DNA of 64,000 nucleotides from an uncultured Actinomycetota bacterium (GTDB lineage: Bacteria; Actinomycetota; Actinomycetes; JAFAQI01): positions 96,001 to 160,000 of the forward strand of contig CAVYQE010000006.1 of the NCBI GenBank assembly GCA_963770565.1, given 5' to 3'. Made by a program: the position numbers and the translations under genes. How positions within the stretch are numbered: the stretch's first letter is position 1; the number at the start of each line of letters is the position of its first letter. The notes under the pieces are model-generated. The model made no database searches. It saw only the letters and a list, made by a program, of their open reading frames with translations, and was not told where the DNA came from. Of this stretch, positions 1-56,073 are shown piece after piece.

Positions 1-1190
1 TCGACCACCTCGAGCCCGGTCGCGTCGCCGGTCAGGCCGAGGTCGAGCCGGGCCGCGACCCGGGCCAGGATCTCGCGGCCCCACAACGTGGCCGGGCCGA
101 GCAACGCCCACGGCCGCTCGGTCCCCAGCCAGCCGGCCAGCGCGGTCGCCAGGTCCTGCGGGATCGCCGATCCGGCCAGCCGCACCAGGCAATCGGCGCC
201 CCAGGTCGAGGCGGTCTCGGCATCGAGCCCGTCGCCGACCGTGACCGCGACGACCGAGCCGCCGGCGCCGACCAGGGCGGCCGCTTCGCCGAGCAGCTCG
301 CGCGCGTTGCGGTCGCGCCCCGGCTCGACCAGTACGGCGATCGAGCCGCCGTCCGGCGCTCGGTCGCGCGTCGCCGATGTGGTCGCGGAGTCCGACCGCG
401 CGTCATCGGACCAGAGATCGCCGAGCGTGTCGACCGCCTGCGAGACCTGCTCCTCGACGGTGCCGGTCAGCCGCAGTCCGGCGCGCGTGGTCGGGTGTAC
501 CCGGACCTCGCCGACCGTCGTGCGGCTCGCGGCATCGCCCCATGGCCCGCCGCCGAGATCGGCCGCGGTGACCACGCGAATCCGCTCGGCGGCGACCTCG
601 GCCCGCGCCGGCGGCGGCATCTTCGCCGGGTCGCAGAGTCGCTCGGCGCAGGCGATCACTGCGGGCAGCTGTGAAACGGCCTCGCGGTGGCCGGAGTCGT
701 GCTCGCAGCCGACCTGCACTCCGCCGCCTTCGAGCAGCGACAGCTCTCGGGCCGCGCCGAGGAACGGCCAGCCGAGCAGCTCGGCCACGGCCGGCCCGAC
801 CTGGCCGGTGTCGGCGTCGAGTGAGTTGCGCCCGACCAGCACGAGGTCGAACCCGCCGAGGTGCTCGATCACCGCGGCGAGTGCTCGCGCGGTCGCCAGC
901 GTGTCCGAACCGGCGAACTCGGGACCGCTCACCATCACTCCGTCGTCGGTGCCCCACGCAACTGCCTCGCGGAGCACGTCCTCGGCCGCGGGCGGACCGA
1001 GCGTGATCGCCGTACAGGTGCCGCCGGTCTCCCGGGCCAGCTCCACACCCTTGGCGACCGCGCGCCGGCAGTAGGCGCTCATCTCGAGCGGCCCGACGTC
1101 GCGGCGCAGCCGACCGTCCGGGCCCAGCTCGAGGTCTGCCAGGATCGGGATCTGCTTGACCAGCGCGGCTATCCGAATCGTGGCCGGCAC
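1..1190 (-). CDS. Fused electron transfer flavoprotein beta/alpha (FixA/FixB-like), runs off left edge
   Basis: Not in the ORF track (no stop inside the window). Manual translation from GTG at 1190: MPATIRIAALVKQIP...TLGPPAAEDVLREA...GSDTLATARALA...VGRNSLDADTGQVGP (ETF-beta), continuing in frame to ...GREILARVAARLDLGLTGDA (ETF-alpha). Confidence 0.85.
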   Translation of the reverse strand, partial: MPATIRIAALVKQIPILADLELGPDGRLRRDVGPLEMSAYCRRAVAKGVELARETGGTCTAITLGPPAAEDVLREAVAWGTDDGVMVSGPEFAGSDTLATARALAAVIEHLGGFDLVLVGRNSLDADTGQVGPAVAELLGWPFLGAARELSLLEGGGVQVGCEHDSGHREAVSQLPAVIACAERLCDPAKMPPPARAEVAAERIRVVTAADLGGGPWGDAASRTTVGEVRVHPTTRAGLRLTGTVEEQVSQAVDTLGDLWSDDARSDSATTSATRDRAPDGGSIAVLVEPGRDRNARELLGEAAALVGAGGSVVAVTVGDGLDAETASTWGADCLVRLAGSAIPQDLATALAGWLGTERPWALLGPATLWGREILARVAARLDLGLTGDATGLEVV

Positions 1191-1191
1191 G

Positions 1192-1209
1192 CAATCAGTA
1201 TACTCAGTT
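1192..1209. promoter_or_regulatory. Putative FadR/GntR operator 1, overlapping the -10 box of the ETF gene
   Basis: CAATC-AGTATACT-CAGTT between divergent ETF and SDR genes; on the minus strand TATACT lies 6 nt before the ETF GTG. Confidence 0.7.
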
Positions 1210-1230
1210 CCGGAGAGAGGACCACACAAC

Positions 1231-2130
1231 ATGGGGATGCTGGACGGGCGGGTCGCTGCCATCACCGGCGCCGGCCGCGGTCTCGGTCGCGAGCACGCGC
1301 TGCTGTTCGCCGCGGAGGGCGCGAAGGTCGTCGTCAACGATCTCGGCGGTGACATCGGCGGCACCGGCGCCGACGCTACGCCGGCTCAGCAGGTGGTCGA
1401 CGAGATCAAGGCCGCGGGCGGCGAGGCGGTCGCCGACGGCAGCGACATCACGACCGCCGACGGTGCTGACGCACTGGTCGCAAAGGCGGTAGACACGTAC
1501 GGCGACCTGCACGCGCTGGTCAACAACGCCGGCATCCTGCGCGACCGGATGCTCGTCAACATGACCGACGAGGAGTGGGACGAGGTCATGCGGGTGCACC
1601 TGCGCGGGCACTTCATGCCCACCCGCGCGGCGGCGCGGCACTGGCGCGAGCGGTCGCAGGCGGGCGAGCAGCCGAACGCGTCGCTGACCAACACCTCGTC
1701 GACGTCCGGGCTGTTCGGCAACGTCGGGCAATCCAACTACGGCGCGGCGAAGTCGGGGATCGCGTCGTTCACCCAGATCTGCCAGATGGAGCTGCAGAAG
1801 TACGGCGTGCGCTGCAACGCGATCGCGCCGGTCGCACGCACCCGCCTCACCCTGGCGACACCGGGCCTCGGCGACCGGATCCAGCCGAAAGAGGGCGAGT
1901 TCGACCGGTACGACCCGGCCAACGTCTCGCCGTTCGTCGCCTACCTCGCGACCGCCGGCTGCCGGATCGCGGGCAAGGTCTTCTTCGTGCAGGGCAACGG
2001 CGTCCACCTGTTCCAGCCGTGGTCGGTCGTCGACCGGATCACCACCGACGGCCGCTGGACCGTCGAGGGCCTCGCCGAGGCCGCCGACCACTGGGCCGAC
2101 GTCGAGTTCGACCTCGGCAAGCCGTACTGA
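1231..2130 (+). CDS. SDR family oxidoreductase (3-hydroxyacyl-CoA dehydrogenase/FabG-like)
   Basis: TGAGRGLG, NNAGILRD and NYGAAK motifs; GGAGAGAGG RBS before ATG 1231. Confidence 0.9.
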   Translation: MGMLDGRVAAITGAGRGLGREHALLFAAEGAKVVVNDLGGDIGGTGADATPAQQVVDEIKAAGGEAVADGSDITTADGADALVAKAVDTYGDLHALVNNAGILRDRMLVNMTDEEWDEVMRVHLRGHFMPTRAAARHWRERSQAGEQPNASLTNTSSTSGLFGNVGQSNYGAAKSGIASFTQICQMELQKYGVRCNAIAPVARTRLTLATPGLGDRIQPKEGEFDRYDPANVSPFVAYLATAGCRIAGKVFFVQGNGVHLFQPWSVVDRITTDGRWTVEGLAEAADHWADVEFDLGKPY

Positions 2131-2144
2131 GCGAGAATCACCCT

Positions 2145-3245
2145 GTGAACCTGATCCTCGACGAGGAGCACAAGGCGTTCCGGCGCTCGGTGCGCTCGTT
2201 CGTCGAGGCGAAGTCGCCCTCGGCCGAGGTACGCCGGCTGATCGACTCGCCGACCGGCTACGACGACGCGACCTGGCGGCAGATGTCCGACCAGCTTGGC
2301 CTGCCCGCGCTCGCGATCCCCGAGCAGTACGGCGGGGGCGGTGGCGGGATGCTCGAGGTCGCGATCGTGATGGCCGAGCTTGGCCGCTCGCTGCTGACCA
2401 CTCCTTATCTCTCTACTGCTGTCATCGCGCCGGCGTTGTTGCTGGCGGGCGACGTCGATGCGACCGCGAGCGACCTGCTGAAGCGGATCGCCGAGGGCGC
2501 GGTGACGGTCGCGGTCGCGCTGGCAACTGACGGCGACGCGGGGGTATCGGTGTCGGCCGTGTCGGACGGCGATGGCTGGGCGCTCAGCGGCCAGGCGGAG
2601 TTCGTGATCGACGGCGCGCAGGCCGAGGTGCTGCTGGTGCCGGCGAGCACGGCTGACGGCGTTCGTCTGTTCAGCGTGGCCGGTGACGCGCCTGGCGTGA
2701 CGCGTACTGCGCTCGAGACGCTCGACGGCACTCGGCGGCAGGCGGTCGTCGAGCTCGATGCCGCTACGGGCTCCGCGATCGGCGGGGTGGATGACGCCGC
2801 CTTGGCACATGCTGCGGACATCGCCGCGATCGCAATCGCGGCCGAGCAGCTCGGCGGCGCGGAGCGGTGCCTGGAGATGGCGACCGAGTACGCGAAGCTG
2901 CGCCAGCAGTTCGGCCGCGCGATCGGCAGCTTCCAGGCGGTCAAGCACATGTGCGCGGACATGCTGATCGAGGTGGAGAGCGCGCGCTCGACCGTGCTCT
3001 ACGCGGCGTGGGTCGCCGACCACGAGCCGGAGTCGCTGTCCGAGGCGGCGAGCCTCGCGAAGGCCCGTGCATCGGACGCGTTCACCACGGTCGCCGCGAC
3101 CAACATCCAGGTGCACGGCGGGATCGGCTTCACCTGGGAGCACGACGCACACCTCTACTACCGGCGCGCGAACTCGACCGCGCAGCTGTTCGGCGACGCG
3201 CGTCGGCATCGCCGCCGCCTCGCCGAGACCCTGGGGCTGATGTGA
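2145..3245 (+). CDS. Acyl-CoA dehydrogenase, partner subunit of a FadE-type pair
   Basis: RQQFGRAIGSFQAVKH and QVHGGIGFTWEHDAH motifs; GTG start at 2145 inside the longer track ORF. Confidence 0.9.
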   Translation: MNLILDEEHKAFRRSVRSFVEAKSPSAEVRRLIDSPTGYDDATWRQMSDQLGLPALAIPEQYGGGGGGMLEVAIVMAELGRSLLTTPYLSTAVIAPALLLAGDVDATASDLLKRIAEGAVTVAVALATDGDAGVSVSAVSDGDGWALSGQAEFVIDGAQAEVLLVPASTADGVRLFSVAGDAPGVTRTALETLDGTRRQAVVELDAATGSAIGGVDDAALAHAADIAAIAIAAEQLGGAERCLEMATEYAKLRQQFGRAIGSFQAVKHMCADMLIEVESARSTVLYAAWVADHEPESLSEAASLAKARASDAFTTVAATNIQVHGGIGFTWEHDAHLYYRRANSTAQLFGDARRHRRRLAETLGLM

Positions 3246-4471: not shown

Positions 4472-4535
4472 TCTTCGCCTGCGCGACCGTTTTTCGCCCG
4501 ACACGCCGTAGAAGTGGTCGCGAGCGCGAAGATCA
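4469..4535. repeat. Imperfect inverted repeat (REP-like hairpin or terminator)
   Basis: TGATCTTCGC...GCGAAGATCA ends, inner CGCGACC/GGTCGCG pairing, CGACACGCCG in the loop. Confidence 0.6.
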
Positions 4536-4603
4536 CGAGGACCGGATCTCCCGGTTTCGTCTCGACCCCAGGAAGGCCCCTATGGATAGCAACGGCGCTT
4601 CAG

Positions 4604-4644
4604 CGGCGGCCAGGGCACAACGATGATCGTTGCCCTGGCCGTCG
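4604..4644. repeat. Second hairpin in the same intergenic region
   Basis: CGGCGGCCAGGGCA...TGCCCTGGCCGTCG with inner CAACGAT/ATCGTTG. Confidence 0.5.
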
Positions 4645-4719
4645 TGGCGGTCGGAACTCCGGCCACGGTGTTCGCCGCCACCGGCACCTCGGTGTGGATC
4701 ACCTGTGGCATCGGTTCGC

Positions 4720-4848: not shown

Positions 4849-4948
4849 CGACTGCGTGATCGGCCTGGCCGACCCCGCGACCGCCCGGTCGTGGCTGGCC
4901 TCCCTCGACCAGTTCTGAAGCAATGTGACATTGCCTTGTGCGCGTTGG

Positions 4949-6418: not shown

Positions 6419-6490
6419 GTGAGCCTCCAGCCGGGTGCCGACGCGACACCGCTGCGAGGATTCTAGGCAATCGCTCGGCGGTGCGAACCC

Positions 6491-7533: not shown

Positions 7534-7551
7534 AATACGGTATCCTGAATT
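7534..7551. promoter_or_regulatory. Putative operator 2
   Basis: AAT-AC-GGTATCCT-GA-ATT upstream of the LLM gene. Confidence 0.7.
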
Positions 7552-7677: not shown

Positions 7678-8412
7678 TTAGCGGCCGACGACGTACCCGC
7701 GGACCGAGTCGAGGTGGCGGGCCATCCGCCGCTCAGCGGTGTCGGGATCGCCGGCGATGACCGCCTCGCCGATCCGGGCATGCGCGTGGTGCACCTCGTT
7801 CGCGACCCGGTCGAGCGACTTGGCGCGCGGCGCCTGCTCGCCGAGCACCCGGCTGATCATCTGCACGAACAGGCTCATCGCCGGGTTGTCGGTCAGCTCC
7901 GCGATCAGCACGTGGAAGTCGTGGGACGGCAGGTCGCCCTTGGGCCGGCTCGAGCGGCGGGTTCGCTTGATCTGCTGGAGCTCGTTGTCGAGGAAGGCCT
8001 GCATCCGGGCCGCGCCTTCGGGGGTGATCCGCTCCGCAGCCAGCCGCACGCACGACAGCTCGAGCGCGTTGCGGGCCTCGATCACTTGACTGGGCTTGAT
8101 GTCCTCGAACCGAAGCTGCAACGACACCGCCCGCACGACCGCGCCGAGGTCGGGCTCGGTGACGACCAGCCCGCCGCCGGGCCCGCGGCGCATCTCGGCG
8201 ACGCCATGGTGGTCGACGATCCGCATCGCCTCGCGGAAGACCGCACGGCTGACGCCGTACCGTTCGATCAGGTCCGCCTCGGAGCCGAGCACTGTGCCGA
8301 CCTGCCGGTCGCCGGCGATGATCTCGTCCTCGATGTGCTGCGCGAGGATCTCGCCGAGCTTGCGGTAGTCGCCGTTCTTCCGCACCGGAAGATCGCGCTT
8401 GGCCGCTGGCAT
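7678..8412 (-). CDS. GntR family, FadR subfamily transcriptional regulator (wHTH + FCD)
   Basis: GSEADLIERYGVSRAVFREA, RRGPGGG and DFHVLIAELTDNP motifs; TACATT -10-like box 7 nt before ATG 8412 (leaderless layout). Confidence 0.9.
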   Translation of the reverse strand: MPAAKRDLPVRKNGDYRKLGEILAQHIEDEIIAGDRQVGTVLGSEADLIERYGVSRAVFREAMRIVDHHGVAEMRRGPGGGLVVTEPDLGAVVRAVSLQLRFEDIKPSQVIEARNALELSCVRLAAERITPEGAARMQAFLDNELQQIKRTRRSSRPKGDLPSHDFHVLIAELTDNPAMSLFVQMISRVLGEQAPRAKSLDRVANEVHHAHARIGEAVIAGDPDTAERRMARHLDSVRGYVVGR

Positions 8413-8488
8413 GGTTAGCAATGTAGTGGTCGATCCCCGCCCCACGACGCTCCTTCGACTGATCGGTTCTCCGAGTGTCAAGCCACAG

Positions 8489-10892: not shown

Positions 10893-10910
10893 GATATAGC
10901 ATACTGAATT
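10893..10910. promoter_or_regulatory. Putative operator 3
   Basis: GAT-AT-AGCATACT-GA-ATT between the divergent amidohydrolase/P450 operon and the ferredoxin. Confidence 0.6.
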
Positions 10911-11671: not shown

Positions 11672-11689
11672 TATTCAGTATACTAGATT
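11672..11689. promoter_or_regulatory. Putative operator 4
   Basis: TAT-TC-AGTATACT-AG-ATT between divergent RidA and amidohydrolase genes. Confidence 0.75.
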
Positions 11690-17103: not shown

Positions 17104-17121
17104 GATTCAGGACACTCTATC
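17104..17121. promoter_or_regulatory. Putative operator 5 (variant)
   Basis: GAT-TC-AGGACACT-CT-ATC just upstream of the LLM gene. Confidence 0.5.
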
Positions 17122-17184: not shown

Positions 17185-17202
17185 GAATTGGTATACTCAA
17201 TA
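17185..17202. promoter_or_regulatory. Putative operator 6
   Basis: GAA-TT-GGTATACT-CA-ATA upstream of amidohydrolase paralog 2. Confidence 0.7.
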
Positions 17203-24897: not shown

Positions 24898-24915
24898 TAC
24901 AGAGTATACTCTAAT
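24898..24915. promoter_or_regulatory. Putative operator 7
   Basis: TAC-AG-AGTATACT-CT-AAT; perfect 12-bp palindrome AGAGTATACTCT at 24901-24912. Confidence 0.75.
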
Positions 24916-28322: not shown

Positions 28323-28340
28323 AGATCAGTATCCTATATT
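28323..28340. promoter_or_regulatory. Putative operator 8
   Basis: AGA-TC-AGTATCCT-AT-ATT upstream of the ThDP enzyme. Confidence 0.7.
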
Positions 28341-28350: not shown

Positions 28351-29100
28351 TCAGGGGCGGAACGTGAACCCGCCGTCGATCGCGAAGGTCTGGCCGGTCA
28401 CCCACGCCGCGTCGTCGCTGCATAGGTAGCGCATCATCCCGTACATGTCCGCGGCTGTCCCCGCGCGCTTGACCGCGTTCTGACTGACCAGCCGCTCGAT
28501 CACCGCGGGCGGCACCTGGCGCTGAGTGGCCTCGTTGTCGATCGTGCCGGGTGCGATCGCGTTGACCGTGATGCCGTCGCCGCCCACCTCGGTCGCCATC
28601 GCGTAGGTCAGCTGGATCAGGCCGAGCTTGCTCACGCCGTACACGCCGCTCGGCCGCCACGCACCGATCGAGGCAATGTTGACGATCCGGCCCCACCTGT
28701 TCTCGCGCATCGCCGGCACCACGGCCGCACTGCACAGCAGCGGGCCTTTGAGGTTCACCGCCATCACGAGGTCCCAGTAGCCGGGGTCGATCTCGGTCAG
28801 CTTGGCGCGCTCGAGGTCGCCCCAGATCCCGGCGTTGTTGACCAGCACGTGTACGCCGCCGAACTCCGCGACCGTCGCGGCAACGAGGTCGCTGACACTC
28901 GTTGCGTCGGTGACGTCGACGGTCACCGCAAGGCAGCGCCCACCGCTCTCCCGGATGTCGGCGGCGGTGGCCTGCGCGGAGTCGCTGTCGACGTCGGCGA
29001 TCACGACTGCGGCGCCATCTCTGGCGAACGACTGCGCGTACTCGCGGCCGAGGCCGCGACCCGCTCCGGTGACGATGGCTACCTTGTCGTCGAGCGTCAT
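28351..29100 (-). CDS. SDR family oxidoreductase
   Basis: TGAGRGLG, NNAG, VYGVSK and VTGQTFAIDGG motifs. Confidence 0.9.
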   Translation of the reverse strand: MTLDDKVAIVTGAGRGLGREYAQSFARDGAAVVIADVDSDSAQATAADIRESGGRCLAVTVDVTDATSVSDLVAATVAEFGGVHVLVNNAGIWGDLERAKLTEIDPGYWDLVMAVNLKGPLLCSAAVVPAMRENRWGRIVNIASIGAWRPSGVYGVSKLGLIQLTYAMATEVGGDGITVNAIAPGTIDNEATQRQVPPAVIERLVSQNAVKRAGTAADMYGMMRYLCSDDAAWVTGQTFAIDGGFTFRP

Positions 29101-29155
29101 TTCACGAGCTCCCATCGAGCTTTGGCACTAGCATTGGGCCTCTGACAACCCCAAG

Positions 29156-29173
29156 AATTGCGTATACTCTGTT
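29156..29173. promoter_or_regulatory. Putative operator 9
   Basis: AAT-TG-CGTATACT-CT-GTT between the divergent SDR and ABC fusion genes. Confidence 0.7.
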
Positions 29174-29247
29174 TTGATGGCACGCCGGGGCTGGAGTCAG
29201 CCCGCGGGCGGCAGTGTGAACCCGAACACAGCCGCGAGGAGTTCGCA

Positions 29248-32070
29248 TTGGTGACCATCCCCTTCCCGGGTGCGGACTTTCAGATCCCCTACAACGTGCT
29301 CATTCTGGGTCTGATCACGGGTCTCACCTACTCGTTGCTGGGAATGGGAATCACCCTGGTCTACCGGACCTCGCGGGTGCTCAACTTCGCTCAGGGCGAG
29401 ATGGGCGCGCTGCCCGCGATGATCATCCCGATCCTCGTGATCAACCGGCACTGGAACTACTGGGTCACGCTGTTCATGGCGATCGGGGGCGCCGTACTGG
29501 TCGGTGCGCTGGCCGAGTTTCTCGTGATCCGGCGGCTGCATGCCGCCTCGCGGCTGACCGCTTTGGTCGCGACGATCGCCCTCGCCGAAGTGCTCTACAT
29601 CGTCGGCATCCTGATCCCGAAGGGATCATCGGACCTGATCGGGGCGTCATACCCGACGCCGTTCTCGACCTCCATCACGATCGGCTCGCTCATCCTCGGG
29701 CCGGGGCAGCTGTTGATCCTCATCGTGGTCCCGCTCACGATGATCGGCCTGACCTTGTTCCTACGCCGCAGCCGCCTCGGCCGGGCCAGTCGCGCGGCGG
29801 CGGAGAACACCGAGGCGGCACAGCTCGCCGGCATTCCGACCAACCGGATCTCGCTCGCGATGTGGTCGATCGCAGGTCTGCTGGCGGGCATCTCCGCGAT
29901 CCTGATCGGCCCGACGCAACCGATCTCGGTCGGTTCGGCGCTCGGCCCGACCCTGCTGGTGCGCGCGCTCGGCGCCGCGATGCTCGGCGGGCTGACGAGG
30001 TTGCCGACCGTGTTCCTCGGCGGGATCGGGATCGGTCTGATCGAGGCCCTCGTCACCTGGAACTACCCGAACGGTGACGCGACCGACCTGGTGATCTTCG
30101 TGATCATCCTCGGCAGCCTGCTGGTGCAGCGCCGGCTCGGGCAGCAGGCCCGCGGGATGGAGGAGAGCTCCTGGTCGCTCGCCCGCAACCTCCGTCCGCT
30201 TCCACCGAGCCTCGCAGCCCACCCGCGGGTCCGCCGCGCCCGGGTGGTGGCCTTCGTGGTGATGATCGCGATCGCGGTCGCGCTTCCGTTACCACTGCAC
30301 TCGGCGCAGCGGTTCTTCCTCAGCGAGGTCGTGGTCTTCGCGCTGATGGGGCTCTCGCTTGTCGTGCTGACCGGCTACGCGGGACAGGTCTCACTCGGCC
30401 AGCTGGCTTTCGTCGCGGTCGGTGCAACGGTCGGCGGCCGCTTCCTCGAGATGGGGCTGCCCGGTCCGCTGGCGGCATTGATCGCGACCCTGATCGGCGG
30501 CGCGGTCGCGCTGGTGGTCGGGCTGCCCGCGCTGCGGATCCGCGGGCTCTTCCTCGCGGTGACGACGCTTGCCTTCTCGGTGGCGGTGGCCGGCTGGATG
30601 TTCGGGCAGGGCTGGCTGGTGAAGAACACCGGCTTTGCCAACTCGTTACAGATTTCGCGGCCGAACATCGGCGGGCTGAACTTCGAGGACGAGAAGTACT
30701 ACTACTGGCTGTGCCTGTTGATCCTGGTGGTCGTCGGGCTTGCGGTCGGGTGGCTGCGGACCAGCCGGCTCGGCCGCTCGATGATCGCGGTCCGCGACAA
30801 CGAGGCCTCTGCGGCCAGCCTGTCGATCTCGCCCGGGCGGACCAAGCTCGCCGCGTTCGTGATCAGCGGGTTGATCGCATCGCTGGCCGGCTACCTGTAC
30901 GGCGGGTTGCTGGTCGACTTCTCCTACGACCCGGCGTCGACCTTCGGTGCGCAGGGATCGCTCGACCTGGTCGTGATGACCGTGCTGGGTGGCGTCACGA
31001 CCGTCACCGGCGCGGTCGTCGGCGCGGCCTGGGTGCAGGGACTGCCGGAGCTGTTCGGCCAGAACATCGGGATCCTCAGCTCCGGCTTCGGCCTGATCGC
31101 GATCCTGCTGGTGCTTCCGGGTGGTCTCGCCTCGCTGGTCTTCACCCTCCGCGACCGGGCCGCGGCCTGGTTGGCGCGAAGCGGCGTCGGCGAGGCCGAA
31201 GCGCCGCCGGCCGCTGCGGCAGTCCAACCTCGGGCCGAGGCGACCGGGCCACCGGTGGCAAGACCCTCGCCCGATGTCGGACCACCGGCGTCGGGCGATG
31301 CCGAGATCCCGTTGCAGGCACACGGCGTACGCGTCAGCTATGGCGGGCTGCTTGCCCTCGACGACGTGTCGGTCTACGCGCGTCCCGGCGAGATCGTCGG
31401 CATCATGGGGACCAACGGCGCGGGCAAGACAACGCTGTTCGACGTCCTCTCCGGCCGGATCCGTCCGGTCAACGGCGAGGTGCAGCTCTACGGCCGCGAC
31501 ATCACCCGCCAGCCCTCGCACCGGCGGGCGCGGCTCGGCCTCGGCCGGACCTTCCAGCAAGCGCGGCTGTTCGACGACCTGACCGTCATCGACGCGGTCC
31601 AGATCGCGGTCGAGGGCGGCTCGGACCCCGGCCGGCCGGCCGCCGACACCGGCCGGGTCGAAGCGCGCCGGATCCGCCGGGGCCGCGCCTCCGCGCACGC
31701 AGCGTTGACGATGGTGGGCCTGCACGACCAGCGGCATCGTTACGCCGGCGAGCTGTCCACCGGCACCCGCCGGCTCGTGGAGCTTGCGTGCGTGGCCGCG
31801 CTTGGCGCGAAGGTGCTCCTGCTGGACGAGCCGACCGCGGGCTTCACTCAGGCCGAAGTCGACGAATTTGTTGTGGTGCTACGGAATCTGCGGGATACGA
31901 CCGGGGTCACGTTGGTCGTGATCGACCACGATGTGCCGATGATGATCGAGCTCGCCGAGCGCTTGTACGTCCTGGAGGCGGGCCGGGTGATCGCCGAAGG
32001 ATCGTCGACGATCCTCAACGACGACCCGCGGGTCGTGGCCACCTACCTCGGTACGACGACCACGACATGA
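29248..32070 (+). CDS. Fused branched-chain-amino-acid-type ABC transporter: LivH-like + LivM-like permeases + LivG-like ATPase
   Basis: LNFAQGE (LivH); GYAGQVSLGQ, LRIRGLFLAVTTLAF and AVRDNE (LivM); GTNGAGKTT, LSTG, LLLDEPTAG and IDHD (LivG); GAGGAG RBS before TTG/GTG at 29248/29251. Confidence 0.9.
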   Translation: MVTIPFPGADFQIPYNVLILGLITGLTYSLLGMGITLVYRTSRVLNFAQGEMGALPAMIIPILVINRHWNYWVTLFMAIGGAVLVGALAEFLVIRRLHAASRLTALVATIALAEVLYIVGILIPKGSSDLIGASYPTPFSTSITIGSLILGPGQLLILIVVPLTMIGLTLFLRRSRLGRASRAAAENTEAAQLAGIPTNRISLAMWSIAGLLAGISAILIGPTQPISVGSALGPTLLVRALGAAMLGGLTRLPTVFLGGIGIGLIEALVTWNYPNGDATDLVIFVIILGSLLVQRRLGQQARGMEESSWSLARNLRPLPPSLAAHPRVRRARVVAFVVMIAIAVALPLPLHSAQRFFLSEVVVFALMGLSLVVLTGYAGQVSLGQLAFVAVGATVGGRFLEMGLPGPLAALIATLIGGAVALVVGLPALRIRGLFLAVTTLAFSVAVAGWMFGQGWLVKNTGFANSLQISRPNIGGLNFEDEKYYYWLCLLILVVVGLAVGWLRTSRLGRSMIAVRDNEASAASLSISPGRTKLAAFVISGLIASLAGYLYGGLLVDFSYDPASTFGAQGSLDLVVMTVLGGVTTVTGAVVGAAWVQGLPELFGQNIGILSSGFGLIAILLVLPGGLASLVFTLRDRAAAWLARSGVGEAEAPPAAAAVQPRAEATGPPVARPSPDVGPPASGDAEIPLQAHGVRVSYGGLLALDDVSVYARPGEIVGIMGTNGAGKTTLFDVLSGRIRPVNGEVQLYGRDITRQPSHRRARLGLGRTFQQARLFDDLTVIDAVQIAVEGGSDPGRPAADTGRVEARRIRRGRASAHAALTMVGLHDQRHRYAGELSTGTRRLVELACVAALGAKVLLLDEPTAGFTQAEVDEFVVVLRNLRDTTGVTLVVIDHDVPMMIELAERLYVLEAGRVIAEGSSTILNDDPRVVATYLGTTTTT

Positions 32071-32151
32071 CCGAAAGGTCCGGACCACGCGCGATGGGTC
32101 CGATTCGAAATTCGTAACAGTCGGGTGTCAATCCATCGACGGATTCCCGAG

Positions 32152-32169
32152 AATAGGGTATACCTAATT
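32152..32169. promoter_or_regulatory. Putative operator 10
   Basis: AAT-AG-GGTATACC-TA-ATT upstream of the binding protein. Confidence 0.78.
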
Positions 32170-32256
32170 CGCACCGCGGCCGACCGCTCGCGTTCCGGCG
32201 TACCGGTGTCGGGTTAAGGCTGGCGCGCATCCCAGCCACGACAGGAGGGGCACGAC

Positions 32257-33576
32257 ATGCTCGGTTCTCGTCCGCGTCAACGATCGATCCTGGCGACGAT
32301 GGCAGTTGCCGTCCTGGGCTTAGCGGTCGGCTGTAGTAGCTCGTCGAGCGGGGGTAGCCCGGGATCGGGATCCTCGTCGCCCGCAACCAGTCCGTCGACC
32401 GCGCCGTCGTCGACGACACCGATCACCATTGGTGTGGCGGTGCCCGACCTGTCCGTGTTCGTGAAGTTCAGCAAGGCGTTCGGCGTCGGCAACCCGCAGA
32501 CCCAGGCCGCCTCCGTGCTGGCGGCGTGGAAGAGCAGCGGCAGCGTGCCGGTCAACGGGCACCCGGTGAAGTTCGTCTACAAGTCCTACAACATCGTCGA
32601 CCCGGCCGCGGAGACCGCGGTCTGCAAGACGTTCGCGCAGGACGACCACGTCTTCGCGGTCATCGGTGGCCAGAGCTTCGAGACCGGTGCGCAGTGCCTT
32701 ACCGGGCAGTTCCACATCCCGGTGGTCGACCTCGACTCGGTGCCGGCGAGCTCCTACCAGAAGGGTGCGCCGGACTACTTCACCCTCCAGCCGGACCAGA
32801 ACACCTTCTACAAGGACTACATCGACTGGGCCGCGAAGGCGGGGCTGTTCAAGAACCAGAAGATCGGCATGTTCATCAGCTCTGAGGTGCAGGAGAGCGC
32901 GAACGTCGCCAAGACCGAGCTGACCAAGCTCGGCTACAAGGTGACGAGCTCGGTCACGGCCAACAGTGCGGGTGTGGGCAGCAATGCCGACCAGCTGGCG
33001 ATGCAGAAGTTCAAGGCGGCCGGCGTCACGGTGATGATCCCGTTCGTGGGTGGCAGCGACGAGATCAACGCTCTCGGGTACGCCGCGAAGCAGCACTACA
33101 ACCTCAAGGTCGTCGACCTCGACACGTCACAGCACACGACCGACGTGGCAGCAGGCGCTTTCCCGGCCACGCTCTACAACGGCACGCAGGCACTGACGTT
33201 CGCGGCGACCGGCGAGAAGGCGGCCAACCTGCCCGAGACTGCTGAGCAGACCGCCTGCATCAACAACTACAACACCTTCTCGGGTGCGAACATCCAGCGG
33301 GTCAGCCCGGAGGTCTCGGGTGAATACCAGAACCTGCTGGAGACCTGCGACATAGCCAACATCGTGCTGAAGGGAATGCAGAACGCCGGCAACAATCTCA
33401 CGGCGGCGTCCTTCATCTCCGGCCTGGAGCAGATCCAGAACATGCCGATCGCAAGCGGCGGCAATGTGTCATTCAGCTCGACCGACCACTGGGGCATTCA
33501 CCAGCTCCGGGCGGTCAAGTGGACGATCGCGTGCCACTGCTGGGCGGCGAACGGCGACTGGTTCTCGACCAGCTGA
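32257..33576 (+). CDS. ABC transporter substrate-binding lipoprotein (type I PBP, LivJ-like fold)
   Basis: Lipobox LAVGC, Ser/Pro linker, PITIGV and VFAVIG motifs; follows the Liv-type fusion. Confidence 0.82.
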   Translation: MLGSRPRQRSILATMAVAVLGLAVGCSSSSSGGSPGSGSSSPATSPSTAPSSTTPITIGVAVPDLSVFVKFSKAFGVGNPQTQAASVLAAWKSSGSVPVNGHPVKFVYKSYNIVDPAAETAVCKTFAQDDHVFAVIGGQSFETGAQCLTGQFHIPVVDLDSVPASSYQKGAPDYFTLQPDQNTFYKDYIDWAAKAGLFKNQKIGMFISSEVQESANVAKTELTKLGYKVTSSVTANSAGVGSNADQLAMQKFKAAGVTVMIPFVGGSDEINALGYAAKQHYNLKVVDLDTSQHTTDVAAGAFPATLYNGTQALTFAATGEKAANLPETAEQTACINNYNTFSGANIQRVSPEVSGEYQNLLETCDIANIVLKGMQNAGNNLTAASFISGLEQIQNMPIASGGNVSFSSTDHWGIHQLRAVKWTIACHCWAANGDWFSTS

Positions 33577-39719: not shown

Positions 39720-39737
39720 AGATGAGGATACTCATCT
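39720..39737. promoter_or_regulatory. Putative operator 11
   Basis: AGATG-AGGATACT-CATCT, near-perfect 18-bp palindrome upstream of MFS-LivF. Confidence 0.72.
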
Positions 39738-44801: not shown

Positions 44802-44819
44802 ATTACAGGATACTAAATA
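44802..44819. promoter_or_regulatory. Putative operator 12 (possible second core AGTATCCG at 44787-44794)
   Basis: ATT-AC-AGGATACT-AA-ATA upstream of the ACAD operon. Confidence 0.7.
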
Positions 44820-46409: not shown

Positions 46410-46427
46410 TATTCCGTATACTCTATC
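46410..46427. promoter_or_regulatory. Putative operator 13
   Basis: TAT-TC-CGTATACT-CT-ATC between two divergent CoA ligases. Confidence 0.7.
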
Positions 46428-50404: not shown

Positions 50405-50422
50405 AAAAGAGTATCCTCCTTT
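50405..50422. promoter_or_regulatory. Putative operator 14
   Basis: AAA-AG-AGTATCCT-CC-TTT between the divergent lactonase-like gene and the ALDH operon. Confidence 0.65.
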
Positions 50423-51892: not shown

Positions 51893-51916
51893 CGCCCCGA
51901 CCCGACCGACGCCGAG

Positions 51917-53428
51917 GTGGCAATGCCTGAGGACTCTCGGCCGGAGACCTTGCTCGATCTGCTCGCGCGTCGCGACGACCATCCGGCGCTGATCGACCCG
52001 ACGTCCGGAGCTGTTCTGACGTACGCCGGACTGCATGCGCAGATCCGCGCGGTCGCTGCACAGCTCGCCGGAGTCGGTGTCCGAGCCGGCGACCGGGTGG
52101 CGATCAGCCTGGCGAACGGGCCGGCGCTGGTCGTCACGGTGCTGGCGATCACCGCGTTGGGAGCAGCGGTCGCACCGATCAACCCGGCGCTGTCCGAGGC
52201 AGAGATGCGCGCGGAGATCGAGGACCTCGGCGTCTCGGTCATGGTGCACGGCGCGCCGGCGTCCGAGGCGGCGAGGGCGGCGGCCGCGGCGGCCGGTGTC
52301 TCTGCCTGGGCGATGTCTGCCGACGCCGACGGCGGGGTCGTCATCGAGGGGGCGGCGGCTGCCGATTCGGTCGAGTTGGTGAGTGACCCGGAGTCGCTGG
52401 CACTCCTGCTGCACACGAGCGGGACGACGAGCCGACCGAAGACCGTCCCGTTGCGGCAGCGCAACCTTGCCTATAGCGCGCGCACGATCGTCGAGTCATA
52501 CGGGCTCGGGCCGGACGACGTCAGCTATTGCGTGATGCCGCTGTTCCACATCCACGGCCTGGTCGCGGCGACCCTCGCCGCCCTCGCGGCCGGTGGGACG
52601 GTCGTCGTACCACCGAAGTTCAGTGCGACGACGTTCTGGGACGACGTGCACACCTTCGGTGCGACCTGGTACACCGCCGTCCCCACGATTCATCTTGTCG
52701 TCGTCAATACCTGCGCGGACGGGCGGCAGAACGGCCACCACCTTCGCTTCGTGCGCTCGTGCTCGTCGACCCTGCCGCCCCCGCTGTGGCGACGGTTCGA
52801 GGCGGCGGTCGGCGTCCCGCTGGTCGAGGCCTACGGCATGACGGAGGCGGCGCACCAGATGACGTCGAACCCGCTGCCACCCGGTGACCGGCGGGCCGGA
52901 TCGGTGGGCGTCGCGACCGGGATCGAAGTCGGCGTTCTCGACGAGCAGTGGCAACCGGTAGCGGCCGGGGAGAGCGGCGAAGTCTGCGTGCGGGGTCGGT
53001 CGATCGTCGATGGTTACCTCGACAACCCCGAGGCCAACGTCGCCGGCTTCCGGGATGGCTGGTTCCGCACCGGCGATGTCGGCACGTTGAGCCCGGACGG
53101 GTACCTGACGCTGGTCGGGCGGATCAAGGAGCTGATCAACCGCGCCGGGGAGAAGATCTCGCCGTACGAGGTCGAAGCCGTGTTGCTCGAGCATCCCGCG
53201 ATCAGCGAGGCGGCAGCTTATCCGCAGCCGGACGAGAAGTACGGCGAGCAGGTCGCGGCCGTCGTCGTTGCGACCGCCGACGTCACTGAGGCCGATCTGA
53301 TCAAGCATTGCGCGGATCGAATGGTGGCCTTCAAGGTGCCGGTCGCGATCGCGGTCAGGCGGGAGATCCCTAAAGGCCCGACCGGCAAGATCCAGCGGCG
53401 GGCGCTTGCGTCCCTGGTCGACACGTGA
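51917..53428 (+). CDS. Acyl-CoA synthetase, oxalate-CoA ligase (AAE3/Pcs60/Oxs)-like
   Basis: LHTSGTTSRPKTVPL, MPLFHIHGL, WYTAVPTIH, RSCSS, EAYGMTEAAHQMTSNPLPP and TGKIQRR motifs. Confidence 0.8.
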   Translation: MAMPEDSRPETLLDLLARRDDHPALIDPTSGAVLTYAGLHAQIRAVAAQLAGVGVRAGDRVAISLANGPALVVTVLAITALGAAVAPINPALSEAEMRAEIEDLGVSVMVHGAPASEAARAAAAAAGVSAWAMSADADGGVVIEGAAAADSVELVSDPESLALLLHTSGTTSRPKTVPLRQRNLAYSARTIVESYGLGPDDVSYCVMPLFHIHGLVAATLAALAAGGTVVVPPKFSATTFWDDVHTFGATWYTAVPTIHLVVVNTCADGRQNGHHLRFVRSCSSTLPPPLWRRFEAAVGVPLVEAYGMTEAAHQMTSNPLPPGDRRAGSVGVATGIEVGVLDEQWQPVAAGESGEVCVRGRSIVDGYLDNPEANVAGFRDGWFRTGDVGTLSPDGYLTLVGRIKELINRAGEKISPYEVEAVLLEHPAISEAAAYPQPDEKYGEQVAAVVVATADVTEADLIKHCADRMVAFKVPVAIAVRREIPKGPTGKIQRRALASLVDT

Positions 53429-54396
53429 GAATCGCCGTCGTCGGCGCGGGAGCGATCGGTGCATATGTCGGCGCCGCCCTGTCGCGCGGTGGCGCGGATG
53501 TCCACCTGGTCGCGCGCGGTCCGCACCTCGAGGCGATGGCCCGTGACGGCGTCGTCGTGCTCAGCGAGCGGGGCGACTTCACGGCTCACCCCGAGGTCAC
53601 CGACGACCCGGCCAAGATCGGTCCGGTCGACCTCATCTTCCTTGGCCTCAAGGCATACTCGTACGCCGCCGCTGGTCCGCTGCTCGACCCGCTGATGCAC
53701 GAGCAGACCGCGGTGGTCGCGGCGCAGAACGGCATCCCGTGGTGGTACTTCCACGGCATCGAGGGCCCACTGGCCGGCACCCGGATCGAGACGATCGACC
53801 CCGGCGGCGCGGTGTCCGACGTCATTGCGCCCGAGCGGGCGATCGGCTGTGTCGTCTACAGCTCGACCACGATCGAGCGACCGGGCGTGATCAGGCACGA
53901 GGAGGGCACCCGGTTCTCGATCGGCGAGCCGGACGGTTCGACGAGTCAGCGTTGCGCGGACTTCAGCGCGGCCATGATTGCCGGCGGCCTGAAGTGCCCG
54001 GTCGAGCCCGACCTCCGGCCGGACATCTGGCTCAAGCTGATGGGCAACATCTCGTTCAACCCGTTGAGCGCGCTGACCGGCGCGACGATGGTGCAGATCG
54101 CGCGGCACCCGCAGGCGCGGGAGCTCGTGGTCGCGATGATGGAGGAGACGCTGGCAATCTCGCGGGCGGTCGGCGCGGAGCCGACGATCTCGATCGAGCG
54201 CCGGCTCGAGGGTGCGGAGCGGGTCGGCGACCACAAGACGTCGATGCTCATCGATCTCGAAGCAGGCAAGCCACTCGAGCTCGATGTGATCATGGCTGCA
54301 CCGATCGAGATCGCCGGTCTCATCGGGGTCGACGTGCCGTCCCTGACCGCGGTGTACGCCGCGATCCGGCTGTTGGCCGACCAGAGGGGGCAGTAG
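53425..54396 (+). CDS. panE: 2-dehydropantoate 2-reductase family protein (PanE2/oxalyl-CoA reductase-like)
   Basis: GAGAIG, QNGIPWWYF, IWLKLMGN..FNP and HKTSMLIDLEAGKPLE motifs; GTGA-coupled to the ligase. Confidence 0.85.
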   Translation: MRIAVVGAGAIGAYVGAALSRGGADVHLVARGPHLEAMARDGVVVLSERGDFTAHPEVTDDPAKIGPVDLIFLGLKAYSYAAAGPLLDPLMHEQTAVVAAQNGIPWWYFHGIEGPLAGTRIETIDPGGAVSDVIAPERAIGCVVYSSTTIERPGVIRHEEGTRFSIGEPDGSTSQRCADFSAAMIAGGLKCPVEPDLRPDIWLKLMGNISFNPLSALTGATMVQIARHPQARELVVAMMEETLAISRAVGAEPTISIERRLEGAERVGDHKTSMLIDLEAGKPLELDVIMAAPIEIAGLIGVDVPSLTAVYAAIRLLADQRGQ

Positions 54397-54399
54397 GCG

Positions 54400-54822
54400 A
54401 TGACCGAACCGGCCGCGTCCGGTGTGGGGCGAGTCCCGCTGGTGGACTACCTCGTGCTCGACCCCGAGCCGCACTTGGTGGCCAACGAGTGCGCGAAATG
54501 CGGCGCGCGGTATTTCGATCGCCGCAATGCCTGTGCCAACTGCGGCGGGATCGAGTTCACGGTCACGTCGATCGCGACCCACGGCGAGGTGCGGACCTTC
54601 ACGATCGTGTCGATGGCTGCGCCCGGCATCGACGTACCGTTTGTGGCGGCGGTCGTGGAGTGCGACGGCACGCAGGTGCGCGCCAACCTGATCAACGTGC
54701 CGCCGGATCCGGAGCACGTGCACCTCGGGATGGCGGTACAGCTCGCGACGTACTCGCTGGGGATCGACGACGGCGGCGTCGAAGCGATCGGCTTCGGCTT
54801 CGAGCCGGAGAGCGCAGCGTGA
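54400..54822 (+). CDS. Zn-ribbon OB-fold (DUF35) protein
   Basis: CAKC...CANC followed by OB-fold strands; directly upstream of the thiolase. Confidence 0.9.
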   Translation: MTEPAASGVGRVPLVDYLVLDPEPHLVANECAKCGARYFDRRNACANCGGIEFTVTSIATHGEVRTFTIVSMAAPGIDVPFVAAVVECDGTQVRANLINVPPDPEHVHLGMAVQLATYSLGIDDGGVEAIGFGFEPESAA

Positions 54823-54876
54823 GGTCAATGGAACGGGCGAAAGCAGGATCGGGCTTAGGCAAGGGAGATCGACGAG

Positions 54877-56073
54877 ATGGCTGACGACGTGTGGATCCTC
54901 GGGATCACGATGACCAAGTTCGGCAAGCACCGGGACCGCGACGCGGTCGACCTTGCGGCCGAGGCCGCGACCGGCGCACTTGCCGACGCCGGCGTCACGA
55001 TGGCCGACATCGGCGTCCTCGCGGCCGGGACCCTGCGAAGCGGAGCGGGCATCGGCCAGCAGCTGCAGAAGCAGATCGGGCAGACCGGCATCCCGGTCTA
55101 CAACGTCACCAACGCATGCGCGACCGGCGCGACCGCGCTGCGGACCGCGATCATGGCGATCAAGGCGGGCGAGGCGGACTACGGCCTCGCCTTCGGCGTC
55201 GAGAAGCTGTCCGGGGTCGGGCTGCTCGCGGGCGCCCAACGGGCCGAGACCTCGACCTGGGAGCCGGCCGGCCGGTACGGCGCGGTAGCCGCGCTCGACG
55301 GCCGGGTCGGCACCGAGACGATGCCCGGTGTCTTCGCCCAGATCGGGATGGAGTACGGCCACCTGTACGGCGGGGCGAGCTTCGAGCTGTTCGCGCGGAT
55401 CGCCGAGAAGAACCACGCGCACTCGACCCTGAATCCGCTCGCGACGTATCAGAAGCGGATGTCGCTCGAAGAGATCATGGGCGACGTGATGATCGCCTAC
55501 CCGAACACTCGCTCGATGTGCTCGGCGAACTGCGACGGCGCCGCGGCGGCGGTCGTCGTGAGCGACGCGAAGCTGAAGACGCTGTCGCTCGAGCAGCGCC
55601 GACGGGCGGTGAAGGTCGCGGCGTCGGTGCTGACCAGCGACCCCTGGCAGGACGCCTGCCAGGTGTTGCCCGACGTCAACACGCTGACCAGGCAGGCGGC
55701 GGCCAAAGCGTACGAGCAGGCCGGCATCGGCCCGGCGGATCTCGACCTGGTCGAGTTGCACGACTGCTTCGCGACTGCGGAGCTCGTGCACTACGACAAC
55801 CTCGGGTTGTGCGAGCCCGGTGGGGCGGTCGACTTCTTCTCCTCCGGTGCGCCGTGGCGCGACGGGCGGATGCCGGTGAACGTCTCGGGCGGGCTCGAGT
55901 CGAAGGGCCACCCGATCGCCGCGACCGGGATCGCGAACATCTGGGAGGTGGCGACGCATCTGCGCGGCGAGGCCGGCGACCGGCAGATCGAGGGCGCCAA
56001 GGTGGGCCTGGCTCACGTCATCGGCCTTGGGTCGTCCTGCGGCGTGCACGTGCTGGAGAAGGCCGCCGCGTAA
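54877..56073 (+). CDS. SCP-x type thiolase family protein
   Basis: NACATG, DGAAAVV, ELHDCF and SGGLESKGHPIAATG motifs. Confidence 0.92.
   Translation: MADDVWILGITMTKFGKHRDRDAVDLAAEAATGALADAGVTMADIGVLAAGTLRSGAGIGQQLQKQIGQTGIPVYNVTNACATGATALRTAIMAIKAGEADYGLAFGVEKLSGVGLLAGAQRAETSTWEPAGRYGAVAALDGRVGTETMPGVFAQIGMEYGHLYGGASFELFARIAEKNHAHSTLNPLATYQKRMSLEEIMGDVMIAYPNTRSMCSANCDGAAAAVVVSDAKLKTLSLEQRRRAVKVAASVLTSDPWQDACQVLPDVNTLTRQAAAKAYEQAGIGPADLDLVELHDCFATAELVHYDNLGLCEPGGAVDFFSSGAPWRDGRMPVNVSGGLESKGHPIAATGIANIWEVATHLRGEAGDRQIEGAKVGLAHVIGLGSSCGVHVLEKAAA

Follow-up and report, generated by a model that had tools for sequence, protein, structure and literature searches.

The 64-kb window analyzed here (64,000 nt from contig CAVYQE010000006.1 of an uncultured Actinomycetota bacterium) contains a large set of catabolic and transport genes, and 14 copies of an A/T-flanked 18-bp pseudo-palindrome stand in front of them. 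These palindromes are quite probably operators for an FCD-type GntR regulator that is encoded in the same window at 7678-8412, or up to 8445 if an alternative start codon is used. This assignment is suggested by the sequence and placement of the sites and by their occurrence beside homologs of the regulator in many other genomes. The operator would thereby provide a sequence criterion for membership in one putative regulon of about 20 transcription units, to which same-strand adjacency assigns about 41 of the window's 48 genes.

A preliminary description of this stretch had listed the palindrome at 14 positions and given its core as RGTATMCY. The palindrome was found at all 14 positions, with the core exact at 10 of them and one base off at each of the others (10893, 17104, 29156, and 46410). 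The symmetrised 22-bp consensus is AAAATTGAGTATACTCAATTTT and carries about 23 bits of information. In the window, 15 strand-matches to the core RGTATMCY were counted where 2.30 ± 1.55 were expected, and none of 100 dinucleotide shuffles gave more than 6; for a looser pattern of flank and core, 7 matches were observed and 0.30 expected. A position weight matrix (PWM) was built from the 14 sites and run over the whole 64 kb. The sites score 18.8 to 28.1 bits, or 12.4 to 26.1 bits in a leave-one-out calculation, and the matrix separates exactly these 14 from the rest of the window, where the runners-up reach 10.0 bits (31062, inside a permease gene) and 6.2 bits. Among 200 first-order Markov simulations of 64 kb, the best score averaged 9.7 bits and at most reached 18.8 bits. 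The simulated sequences contained on average 0.47 matches of at least 10 bits, compared with the 14 observed.

The centres of all 14 sites are intergenic. Intergenic DNA makes up 3,402 of the 64,000 nt (5.3%) in a map of 48 genes based on third-position GC bias and on Pfam and NCBIfam scans, and 13 of the 28 intergenic regions of at least 20 nt contain a site. The distance from a site to a plausible start codon ranges from 1 to 87 nt and is mostly 1 to 47 nt. As stated earlier, the motif precedes nearly every catabolic or transport promoter. Six single sites and one pair of sites lie between divergent genes. The choice-of-anchor-Q, GT39, and SNF2 helicase genes, orf245, and the giant open reading frames (ORFs) have intergenic DNA without any site in front of them, in agreement with the site-free genes named earlier (anchor-Q, GT39, helicase, lipoprotein, and giant genes; orf245 is among those found site-free). 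The two-fold symmetry of the consensus reaches 9 bp from the centre, also at sites that serve one gene only. Each site has on average 6.5 complementary pairs of 11, compared with 2.9 for random 22-mers of equal composition. When the right halves were dealt among the sites, 6.14 ± 0.34 pairs were obtained, indicating no site-specific compensation. Dyad symmetry without such compensation is the signature of a dimeric DNA-binding protein rather than of an RNA hairpin.

In the regulator, Pfam identifies an N-terminal winged helix-turn-helix domain of the GntR type (PF00392), which scores 32.7 bits (cut-off 27) and covers residues 66-122 of a 287-aa ORF, and an all-helical C-terminal FCD effector domain (PF07729), which scores 72.8 bits (cut-off 24.3). 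Close homologs of the protein cluster at a length of 255 aa. It is the sole transcription factor recognized among the 53 + 17 ORFs scanned; no hidden second regulator was found, as the leftover ORFs (17-ORF scan) contain no regulator domain. A 156-aa ORF that had been suspected to encode a MarR protein proved to encode RidA. None of the NCBIfam models scores above its cut-off for the regulator. Seven sub-cut-off matches were obtained, to NanR, LldR, GlcC, ExuR, UxuR, PdhR, and PhnR, the best being NanR (84.7 bits against 260), and the other named FCD equivalogs reach 53-70 bits where 301-442 would be required. All of the nearest solved structures are of FCD regulators, namely PdhR (9jpj, E = 8.8e-12), NanR (6on4, E = 1.2e-10), and the LldR-like CGL2915 (2di3, E = 1.1e-9). 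In an alignment of 30 homologs, the invariant columns show that the DNA-reading head is the best-conserved part of the protein. In the FCD domain, His167, His211, and His233 are invariant or at least 90% conserved and align with histidines of PdhR and NanR.

The acyl-CoA-binding C-terminal domain of FadR is a Pfam family distinct from FCD. This FadR_C domain was not matched in the regulator (Pfam scan at E ≤ 1e-5, which returned FCD and GntR only), and FadR is not among the NCBIfam matches. The regulator is an FCD-type member of the FadR subfamily of GntR regulators and not a true acyl-CoA-sensing FadR. The earlier proposal that a local "FadR" reads the operators is thus retained with respect to the subfamily, is supported by the lack of any other transcription factor in the window and by the motif tracking the regulator clade, and is corrected with respect to the sensing of acyl-CoA. 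With an FCD domain in place of FadR_C, acyl-CoA is not the expected effector. FadR-subfamily regulators are described as sensors of small carboxylic acids (PMC4494728), and the effector of this member is most likely a free carboxylate, either the substrate of the pathway or an intermediate. The operator consensus given for the subfamily is an A/T-rich palindrome of the form NyGTM-N0-1-KACNy (PMC4494728). As had been proposed, the window consensus AATTnAGTATACTnAATT fits this form. Its GT and AC are separated by 2 nt (GTATAC), which places it in the 2-nt class of the subfamily. No description of the regulator clade or of its operator was found in the literature that was covered, which did not extend to subscription journals, RegPrecise, or the site tables of PMC4494728, where a regulog may exist.

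The motif and the regulator also occur together in other genomes. A total of 80 loci (1.44 Mb, with at most 10 kb on each side of the regulator gene) were selected solely because they encode a homolog of the regulator (40-96% identity). Represented among them are Acidimicrobiia, Frankiaceae, Dormibacterota-labelled and other metagenome-assembled genomes (MAGs), and cultured Rhodococcus, Nocardia, Gordonia, Amycolatopsis, Pseudonocardia, Saccharopolyspora, and Streptomyces. The PWM derived from the window has 205 matches of at least 17 bits in these loci against 0.5 expected, and 76 of the 80 loci contain at least one match of 15 bits or more. For 193 of the 205 sites, an ORF begins a short way downstream (median gap, 34 nt), which fits promoter-proximal repression. 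There is no match inside the regulator ORF itself, and a site occurs within 400 bp of the regulator gene in 31 of the 80 loci. The density of the motif is 0.53 per kb just upstream of the regulator gene, compared with about 0.15 per kb across the rest of the ±10 kb. Phylogenetic footprinting with a close relative (L001, 96% identical) lends weak support, as the intergenic DNA is mostly identical at this short distance. Taken over all loci, the regulator-operator pair is conserved across Actinomycetota and not particular to this window.

A control within one replicon comes from Rhodococcus opacus 1CP. Its plasmid pR1CP1 encodes a homolog (at 367958-368668, annotated as an FCD protein) that is 46% identical to the regulator and has the same recognition helix and wing. 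The 40.7 kb around this homolog contains five matches of at least 17 bits and seven of at least 14 bits, which sit in divergent regions between acyl-CoA dehydrogenase (ACAD) and ligase genes and between SDR and regulator genes. Six other 50-kb windows of the same replicon (300 kb) contain no match of at least 14 bits, with a maximum of 12.8 bits, and these control windows do contain other GntR, TetR, ACS, thiolase/OB-fold, CMD, and CaiB genes. The preliminary description had named equal frequency in unrelated promoters as a finding that would refute the regulon; on this replicon, the motif is not equally frequent there. Loci were also selected by a target gene: tblastn of a 381-aa ACAD against plasmids returned 11 records, of which three were examined. 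The two best records are the two plasmids with the two best plasmid-borne regulator homologs. The Streptomyces plasmid, which carries both the ACAD and the regulator, has sites of 23.2 and 15.2 bits. The Novosphingobium and Variovorax plasmids carry ACAD orthologs and no regulator homolog, and their motif maxima are 7.4 and 8.5 bits. On the plasmid of Streptomyces sp. NBC_01471 (L088), weaker sites at 8217, 9061, and 14776, of 6.9-10.6 bits and with GTGYAC or GTGTTC cores, stand beside the strong ones. They suggest a G+C-richer operator variant in Streptomyces that the window PWM under-scores.

The recognition helix VSRAVFREA is identical in 79 of the 80 loci and the wing is of the RRGP type in 77, a conservation that is partly built in, as both peptides were the scan patterns. 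The motif is present in 76 of the 77 loci with an RRGP-type wing and in none of the three with the wing RRGLHGG (L048, L063, and L079). Shared 9-mers near the RRGLHGG regulators were considered as an alternative operator and turned out to be tRNA genes.

Several observations weigh against the assignment of the operators to this regulator. The three RRGLHGG loci are closely related, with nearly identical upstream regions, so that they count as about one evolutionary event, and a palindrome search near their regulators revealed no alternative operator. One locus with a normal wing (L080, 10.2 kb) has no site. The enrichment of the motif beside the regulator gene is only about 3-fold relative to the rest of the ±10 kb. 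All 80 loci were chosen by the regulator, and the control for the association consists of one replicon (300 kb) and two proteobacterial loci. In the window, no canonical -35/-10 pair is found at the sites; a sigma-70 scan of positions 1-20000 gave one match, away from every site, against 0.8 expected and is uninformative in a high-GC genome. The pR1CP1 cluster also contains an IclR regulator. Moreover, paralogs with the same DNA-reading head occur within one genome, as in L042/L053 (one Pseudonocardia halophobica contig) and L046/L051 (one Subtercola MAG), each with motif matches nearby, which poses the question of cross-talk. Given such paralogs elsewhere, control of all 14 sites by this one protein is not provable from the window, and some of the sites could belong, wholly or jointly, to a further copy of the regulator encoded outside it.

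These paralogs and the IclR gene, together with the fact that only 64 kb of the source genome is in view, leave some room for the idea that the operators are read by another protein, either a paralogous FCD-GntR or an unrelated regulator encoded outside the window, with the local GntR controlling some of the sites or none. We consider this unlikely. The window contains no second transcription factor, the motif is of the type expected for the FadR subfamily, and it tracks the regulator clade over phylum-level distances and is not found beside regulators with an altered wing or in loci without the regulator. Even a paralog, if it had this head, would be a regulator of the same kind.

The operators are discussed below as sites of the local FCD-type regulator, in a scheme in which binding, repression, overlap with the -10 element, ligand, and substrate are all inferred from sequence. 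The repression and the -10 overlap proposed earlier are consistent with where the sites lie. A homodimer would read the dyad (a)AATTnAGTATACTnAATT(t) through the recognition helix and the wing RRGPGGG. At about 20 promoters, the operators would overlap the transcription start region or precede it closely, and the core TATACT might itself be the -10 element in several cases. The bound protein would repress about 41 of the 48 window genes, its own operon included; operator 3 heads the AH2a-P450-regulator unit and thereby offers a route for autoregulation. A small ligand in the FCD domain, most likely a carboxylate substrate or intermediate of the pathway, would release the protein. The sites are directly followed by a Shine-Dalgarno-like GGAGG (often within 5-15 nt) and a start codon, so that the bound protein would cover the -10/+1 region or the first transcript bases and repress. 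The core AGTATACT reads TATACT on both strands, and in divergent regions of 40-130 bp one dimer could occlude two back-to-back promoters.

The same protein might bind these sites and activate, or act dually, as E. coli FadR does at fabA. FadR is able to activate depending on the position of its site (PMC6608401), and some sites lie 64-87 nt from the start codon (before ACAD4, the gene for the SBP-like protein, and SDR2). Most sites, on the other hand, are 1-47 nt from the start with the ribosome-binding site next to them, which places them at or downstream of the -10 region, and the catabolic FCD regulators UxuR, HypR, and NanR are described as repressors (PMC8092373, PMC6608401, PMC8012715). 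Activation is accordingly a rather improbable role.

The motif might also be no repressor site at all, being instead a promoter element, namely an extended -10 (TATACT) of one sigma factor for catabolic genes. In favour of such a function, TATACT stands on both strands of the core, and the positions equivalent to A2 and T6 of the -10 hexamer are well conserved. The GGAGG is so close that little room remains for a downstream promoter. At the electron transfer flavoprotein (ETF) gene, GTG 1190 is a credible start (N-terminus VPATIRIAALVKQIP), and TATACT stands 6 nt upstream of it, as stated previously; this gene may be leaderless. Nevertheless, the dyad symmetry of the motif, which is kept at single-gene sites, its absence from the 300 kb of the Rhodococcus replicon and from the non-catabolic promoters of the window, and the way its presence tracks the wing sequence of a DNA-binding protein make a pure promoter element very improbable, and operator and -10 roles can coexist by overlap. 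Finally, that the palindromes act as RNA, as hairpins in the 5' untranslated region that affect stability, termination, or translation, is scarcely credible: a perfect copy could form a 7-bp stem with a 4-nt loop and several sites may be transcribed if promoters lie upstream, but compensatory covariation is lacking, Rfam has no match anywhere in the window, and single sites serve divergent genes on both strands.

The sites and their predicted targets are listed in the table. Operon membership of the targets was derived from same-strand adjacency.

Table. Positions of the regulator gene and of the 14 putative operators, with PWM scores and predicted target genes. AH2, Amidohydro_2 protein; ALDH, aldehyde dehydrogenase; ECH, enoyl-CoA hydratase; GGT, gamma-glutamyltranspeptidase; (+) and (-), strand.
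Feature	Position	Score (bits)	Setting	Predicted targets	Basis for targets
Regulator gene	7678..8445 (-)		Start ATG 8412 (244 aa) or GTG 8445 (255 aa, AAGGAG upstream); last in AH2a-P450-regulator operon		
Operator 1, CAATCAGTATACTCAGTT	1192..1209	25.1	40-bp gap between divergent ETF (-) and SDR1 (+); 1 nt to GTG 1190, 21 nt to ATG 1231	Fused ETF beta-alpha 2-1190 (-); SDR1 and two ACADs 1231-4471 (+)	Pfam, translation
Operator 2	7534..7551	27.8	Before LLM1 (-)	F420-dependent LLM oxidoreductase (LLM1), TIGR03617, 6491..7513 (-)	NCBIfam, 477 bits vs cut-off 278
Operator 3	10893..10910	23.2	Before AH2a-P450-regulator (-); 35 nt to ATG 10857	AH2a 9706-10857, cytochrome P450 8489-9700, regulator gene downstream (-)	Pfam p450; DitZ match
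Operator 4	11672..11689	27.1	Between divergent RidA (-) and AH2b (+)	RidA/YjgF 11176-11646 (-); Amidohydro_2 AH2b 11737-12885 (+)	Pfam
Operator 5	17104..17121	18.8 (leave-one-out 12.4; weakest)	Before LLM2 (-); core GGACAC	LLM2 and HbpS/GlcG-like 15705-17087 (-)	Pfam
Operator 6	17185..17202	25.7	Before AH2c-GGT (+)	AH2c and GGT 17225-19813 (+)	Pfam
Operator 7	24898..24915	27.1	Between divergent SDR2-ALDH-CoA-transferase-ACS (-) and AH2d-CMD (+)	SDR2-ALDH1-CoA-transferase III-acyl-CoA ligase 19817-24828 (-); AH2d-CMD 24951-26658 (+)	Pfam, NCBIfam
Operator 8	28323..28340	26.6	Before TPP enzyme gene (-)	TPP enzyme 26663-28300 (-)	Pfam, NCBIfam
Operator 9	29156..29173	28.1 (best in window)	Between divergent SDR3 (-) and fused LivH/M-LivG (+)	SDR3 (-); fused Liv-type permease and ATPase 29248-32070 (+); targets of operators 9 and 10 together, 28351..33576	Pfam, NCBIfam
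Operator 10	32152..32169	25.8	Before gene for SBP-like protein (+)	SBP-like protein 32257-33576 (+)	Comparison with L014 protein
Operator 11	39720..39737	22.2	Before MFS-LivF fusion, orf142, SDR4 (-)	MFS-LivF fusion, orf142, SDR4, 36157-39684 (-)	Pfam
Operator 12	44802..44819	25.5	Before ACAD-ACAD-ACAD-ECH-ACAD operon (-)	Five-gene ACAD/ECH operon 39758-44737 (-)	Pfam
Operator 13	46410..46427	23.3	Between divergent ACS1 (-) and PaaK-like ligase with class IV aminotransferase (+)	Acyl-CoA ligase ACS1 44837-46390 (-); PaaK-like ligase and aminotransferase IV 46456-48554 (+)	Pfam, NCBIfam
Operator 14	50405..50422	24.2	Between divergent AH2e (-) and ALDH2-ACS3-PanE-DUF35-SCPx thiolase (+)	AH2e 49527-50399 (-); ALDH2-ACS3-PanE-DUF35/OB-SCPx thiolase 50465-56073 (+)	Pfam, NCBIfam

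Some of these sites can be followed in related loci. Operator 2 is 100% conserved in L001 despite an adjoining 44-bp indel, and operator 5 is conserved there as well. The divergent RidA/AH2b pair with its site is also present in L001, L008, and L011. The order ACAD-ACAD-ACAD-ECH-ACAD recurs on R. opacus pR1CP1 and on a Streptomyces plasmid, with sites in both. The protein behind operator 10, which resembles a substrate-binding protein (SBP), aligns over its full length with a Peripla_BP_6 protein of L014 at about 20% identity.

The window has a G+C content of about 70%, and positions 1-56073 consist almost exclusively of catabolic and transport genes. The catabolic genes encode a fused ETF, seven ACADs, one enoyl-CoA hydratase, four or five acyl-CoA ligases, a family III CoA-transferase, two aldehyde dehydrogenases, five SDRs, two F420-type LLM oxidoreductases, a P450, a TPP enzyme, six Amidohydro_2 (PF04909) proteins, RidA, CMD, HbpS/GlcG-like proteins, a gamma-glutamyltranspeptidase, and an SCPx thiolase with its DUF35 partner. 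Transport is represented by a Liv-type ABC system and one MFS protein. Several of the genes are of unusual build. The ETF beta and alpha domains lie in one stop-free frame of 396 residues that runs off the start of the window (2-1190, -), with the second ETF domain beginning at about residue 293. The gene at 37438-39684 (-) encodes an unusual 748-aa fusion of an MFS_1 permease (residues 51-406) and a LivF/UrtE-like ABC ATPase (510-736). Its presumed partner at 29248-32070 (+) has two BPD_transp_2 permease domains fused to a LivG-like ATPase, and this LivH/M-LivG fusion recurs in L070 (4942-7713).

Between the stop codon of the regulator gene and operator 2, at about 7596-7662, two copies of the direct repeat GGCCCATTGGTGGGG surround a GTGGGGC/GCCCCAC hairpin. 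One repeat copy (44 bp) is absent from L001, and the region may be a terminator with a recent duplication. The sole sigma-70-like match of the scan lies at 6460-6487 (-), TTCGCA-16-TAGAAT, just before the choice-of-anchor-Q gene (4949-6418). As this gene has no operator in front of it, it may have its own unregulated promoter. Two giant ORFs lie outside the regulon, at 56173-59811 (+, 1212 aa) and at 59772-64000 (+, at least 1409 aa with an open end). Neither matches a Pfam family at E ≤ 0.01, and their GC3 is of the coding type (0.92 in the first one, which was measured).

The genes behind the sites of the other loci indicate what the regulon may degrade. In the loci with 53-96% identity, 117 of 165 site-gene pairs were run through Pfam, after duplicates and near-identical loci had been dropped (L007, L020, L022, L024, L026, L027, and most of L006 and L009). 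Amidohydro_2 is by far the most frequent family downstream of these sites (33 of 117), followed by ACAD (8), HbpS-like proteins (7), RidA (6), GGT (5), the regulator itself (5), and LLM (4), and there are three each of CoA-transferase III, CMD, P450, BNR proteins, Peripla_BP_6, and SDR. In the distant loci (40-48% identity), where 79 of 133 pairs were run, ACAD is most frequent (21), followed by AMP-ligase (10), the cyclase family PF04199 (10), ECH (7), and FAS1_DH/MaoC (6). The five-gene ACAD/ECH operon and its neighbouring ligase are common to the window (39758-46390), pR1CP1, and the Streptomyces plasmid, and this set looks like a conserved core. BNR/Asp-box repeat proteins of about 590 aa stand recurrently behind the motif in Acidimicrobiia (L003:776-2572, L004:12156-13901, and L010:10713-12518). 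Gamma-glutamyltranspeptidase homologs do so in L012, L017, and L003, and neither they nor the BNR proteins are obvious partners for acyl-CoA catabolism.

The Amidohydro_2 superfamily has lately been shown to include the dinuclear C-H hydroxylases DitZ, PtmU3, AibH, and SfbO, while most of its members are orphans. A homology search against characterized amidohydrolase-related dinuclear oxygenases covered AH2a and AH2c. AH2a matches Rhodococcus DitZ (PDB 8uyr) over its full length (residues 5-369) with E = 9.9e-73, compared with 7e-36 for PtmU3. The match of AH2c is ambiguous between PtmU3 (7e-16) and LigW (7.6e-14). DitZ is described as a diiron hydroxylase assayed with dehydroabietic acid (PMC13154177) and is classed among the amidohydrolase-related dinuclear oxygenases (PMC13154177, PMC10811679). 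Enzymes of this class have dinuclear metal ligands and a dedicated reductase partner, a Rieske ferredoxin; no Rieske protein was seen in the window. The putative regulon is rich in oxygenase genes, with five or six Amidohydro_2 paralogs (at least one of them DitZ-like), a P450, and F420-dependent LLMs. The gene content suggests a pathway of carboxylic acid uptake, several C-H hydroxylations, CoA activation, and beta-oxidation-like shortening. A reasonable guess for the substrate is a terpenoid-like or other alicyclic carboxylic acid of an inert kind.

A joint reading of these results can be put forward only as a tentative and somewhat doubtful one. An undescribed, Actinomycetota-wide regulator-operator pair would mark the catabolism of inert alicyclic or terpenoid-like carboxylic acids. 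The ancestral core of the regulon would be the five-gene ACAD/ECH operon together with the genes for an acyl-CoA ligase and a cyclase-family protein, and among uncultured Acidimicrobiia and Frankiaceae-like lineages it would have grown into large sets dominated by amidohydrolase-related dinuclear oxygenases. The core AGTATACT would be a shared back-to-back -10 element at which one dimer shuts two units, some of them leaderless.

The putative operator groups about 41 window genes of a large unannotated degradation system whose families recur in dozens of uncultured Acidimicrobiia and other Actinomycetota. By linking the Amidohydro_2 paralogs to genes for transport, CoA ligation, and beta-oxidation, such a regulon limits the range of substrates to be considered for them. 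Since this regulator and its operator are also present in the culturable R. opacus 1CP (pR1CP1) and in Streptomyces, the ligand and the pathway can be tested there and the results transferred to uncultured lineages.

Two known catabolic systems invite comparison with the window. KstR and KstR2, which control actinobacterial steroid catabolism, are TetR-family regulators. Their short palindromic operators recur in front of many divergent operons, and the large clusters concerned contain numerous ACAD, acyl-CoA ligase, ECH, and SCPx-type thiolase/DUF35 genes. Their regulons can be likened to the one proposed here as functional analogues, with many divergent operons under one repressor, but the operators are unrelated. 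Pfam found no TetR gene and no steroid ring-opening genes in the window. The dit clusters for the catabolism of diterpenoids (resin acids) contain the DitA ring-hydroxylating dioxygenase and the DitC extradiol dioxygenase alongside DitZ, P450, CoA ligase, SDR, and SCPx thiolase/DUF35 genes. The window resembles them in having the DitZ-like AH2a, a P450, CoA ligases, SDRs, and an SCPx thiolase/DUF35 pair. Of the 70 window ORFs scanned, none has a Rieske, Ring_hydroxyl_A, or extradiol domain, and since the ring-opening dioxygenases of dit clusters are thus absent, the window was not filed as a dit cluster. In one related locus (L013), a gene for a Rieske dioxygenase does lie behind the motif.

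Among characterized GntR regulators, identity with HypR of S. coelicolor was rejected, as its operator CTNTGC(A/C)ATGTCAC is unrelated (PMC6608401). E. coli FadR shares with the regulator a GntR winged-helix head, a palindromic GT...AC operator, and ACAD and ligase targets, and differs in the spacing between GT and AC, given as 3 nt (PMC4494728) compared with 2 nt in the window. PdhR, NanR, and the LldR-like CGL2915 are the best structure matches, NanR is the top NCBIfam model, and the FCD histidines are shared. The scores for PdhR, NanR, and LldR nevertheless fall below the family cut-offs and their regulons are small; NanR is described as binding direct GGTATA repeats (PMC8012715), and the PdhR and LldR operators have a 3-nt spacing (PMC4494728). 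A close likeness in the operator is to UxuR. UxuR and ExuR, the hexuronate repressors of E. coli, have the GntR+FCD architecture and repress genes for catabolism and transport until a ligand releases them. The UxuR operator AAATTGGTATACCAATTT is likewise an A/T-flanked palindrome with 2 nt between GT and AC (PMC8092373; for the 2-nt class, PMC4494728), and the window site at 17185 (GAATTGGTATACTCAATA) matches a UxuR half-site. In contrast, the inner arm is gAGTATACTc in the window and TGGTATACCA in UxuR, the NCBIfam scores are far below cut-off (ExuR 56 against 396; UxuR 53 against 442), the targets in the window are CoA-dependent and oxygenase genes rather than sugar-acid genes, and the sites are far denser, with 14 in 50 kb. 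The proposed mechanism itself, a GntR/FCD repressor with a palindromic operator, is an ordinary one, and what is new is this member of the family, its phylum-wide operator, and the gene set that the operator defines.

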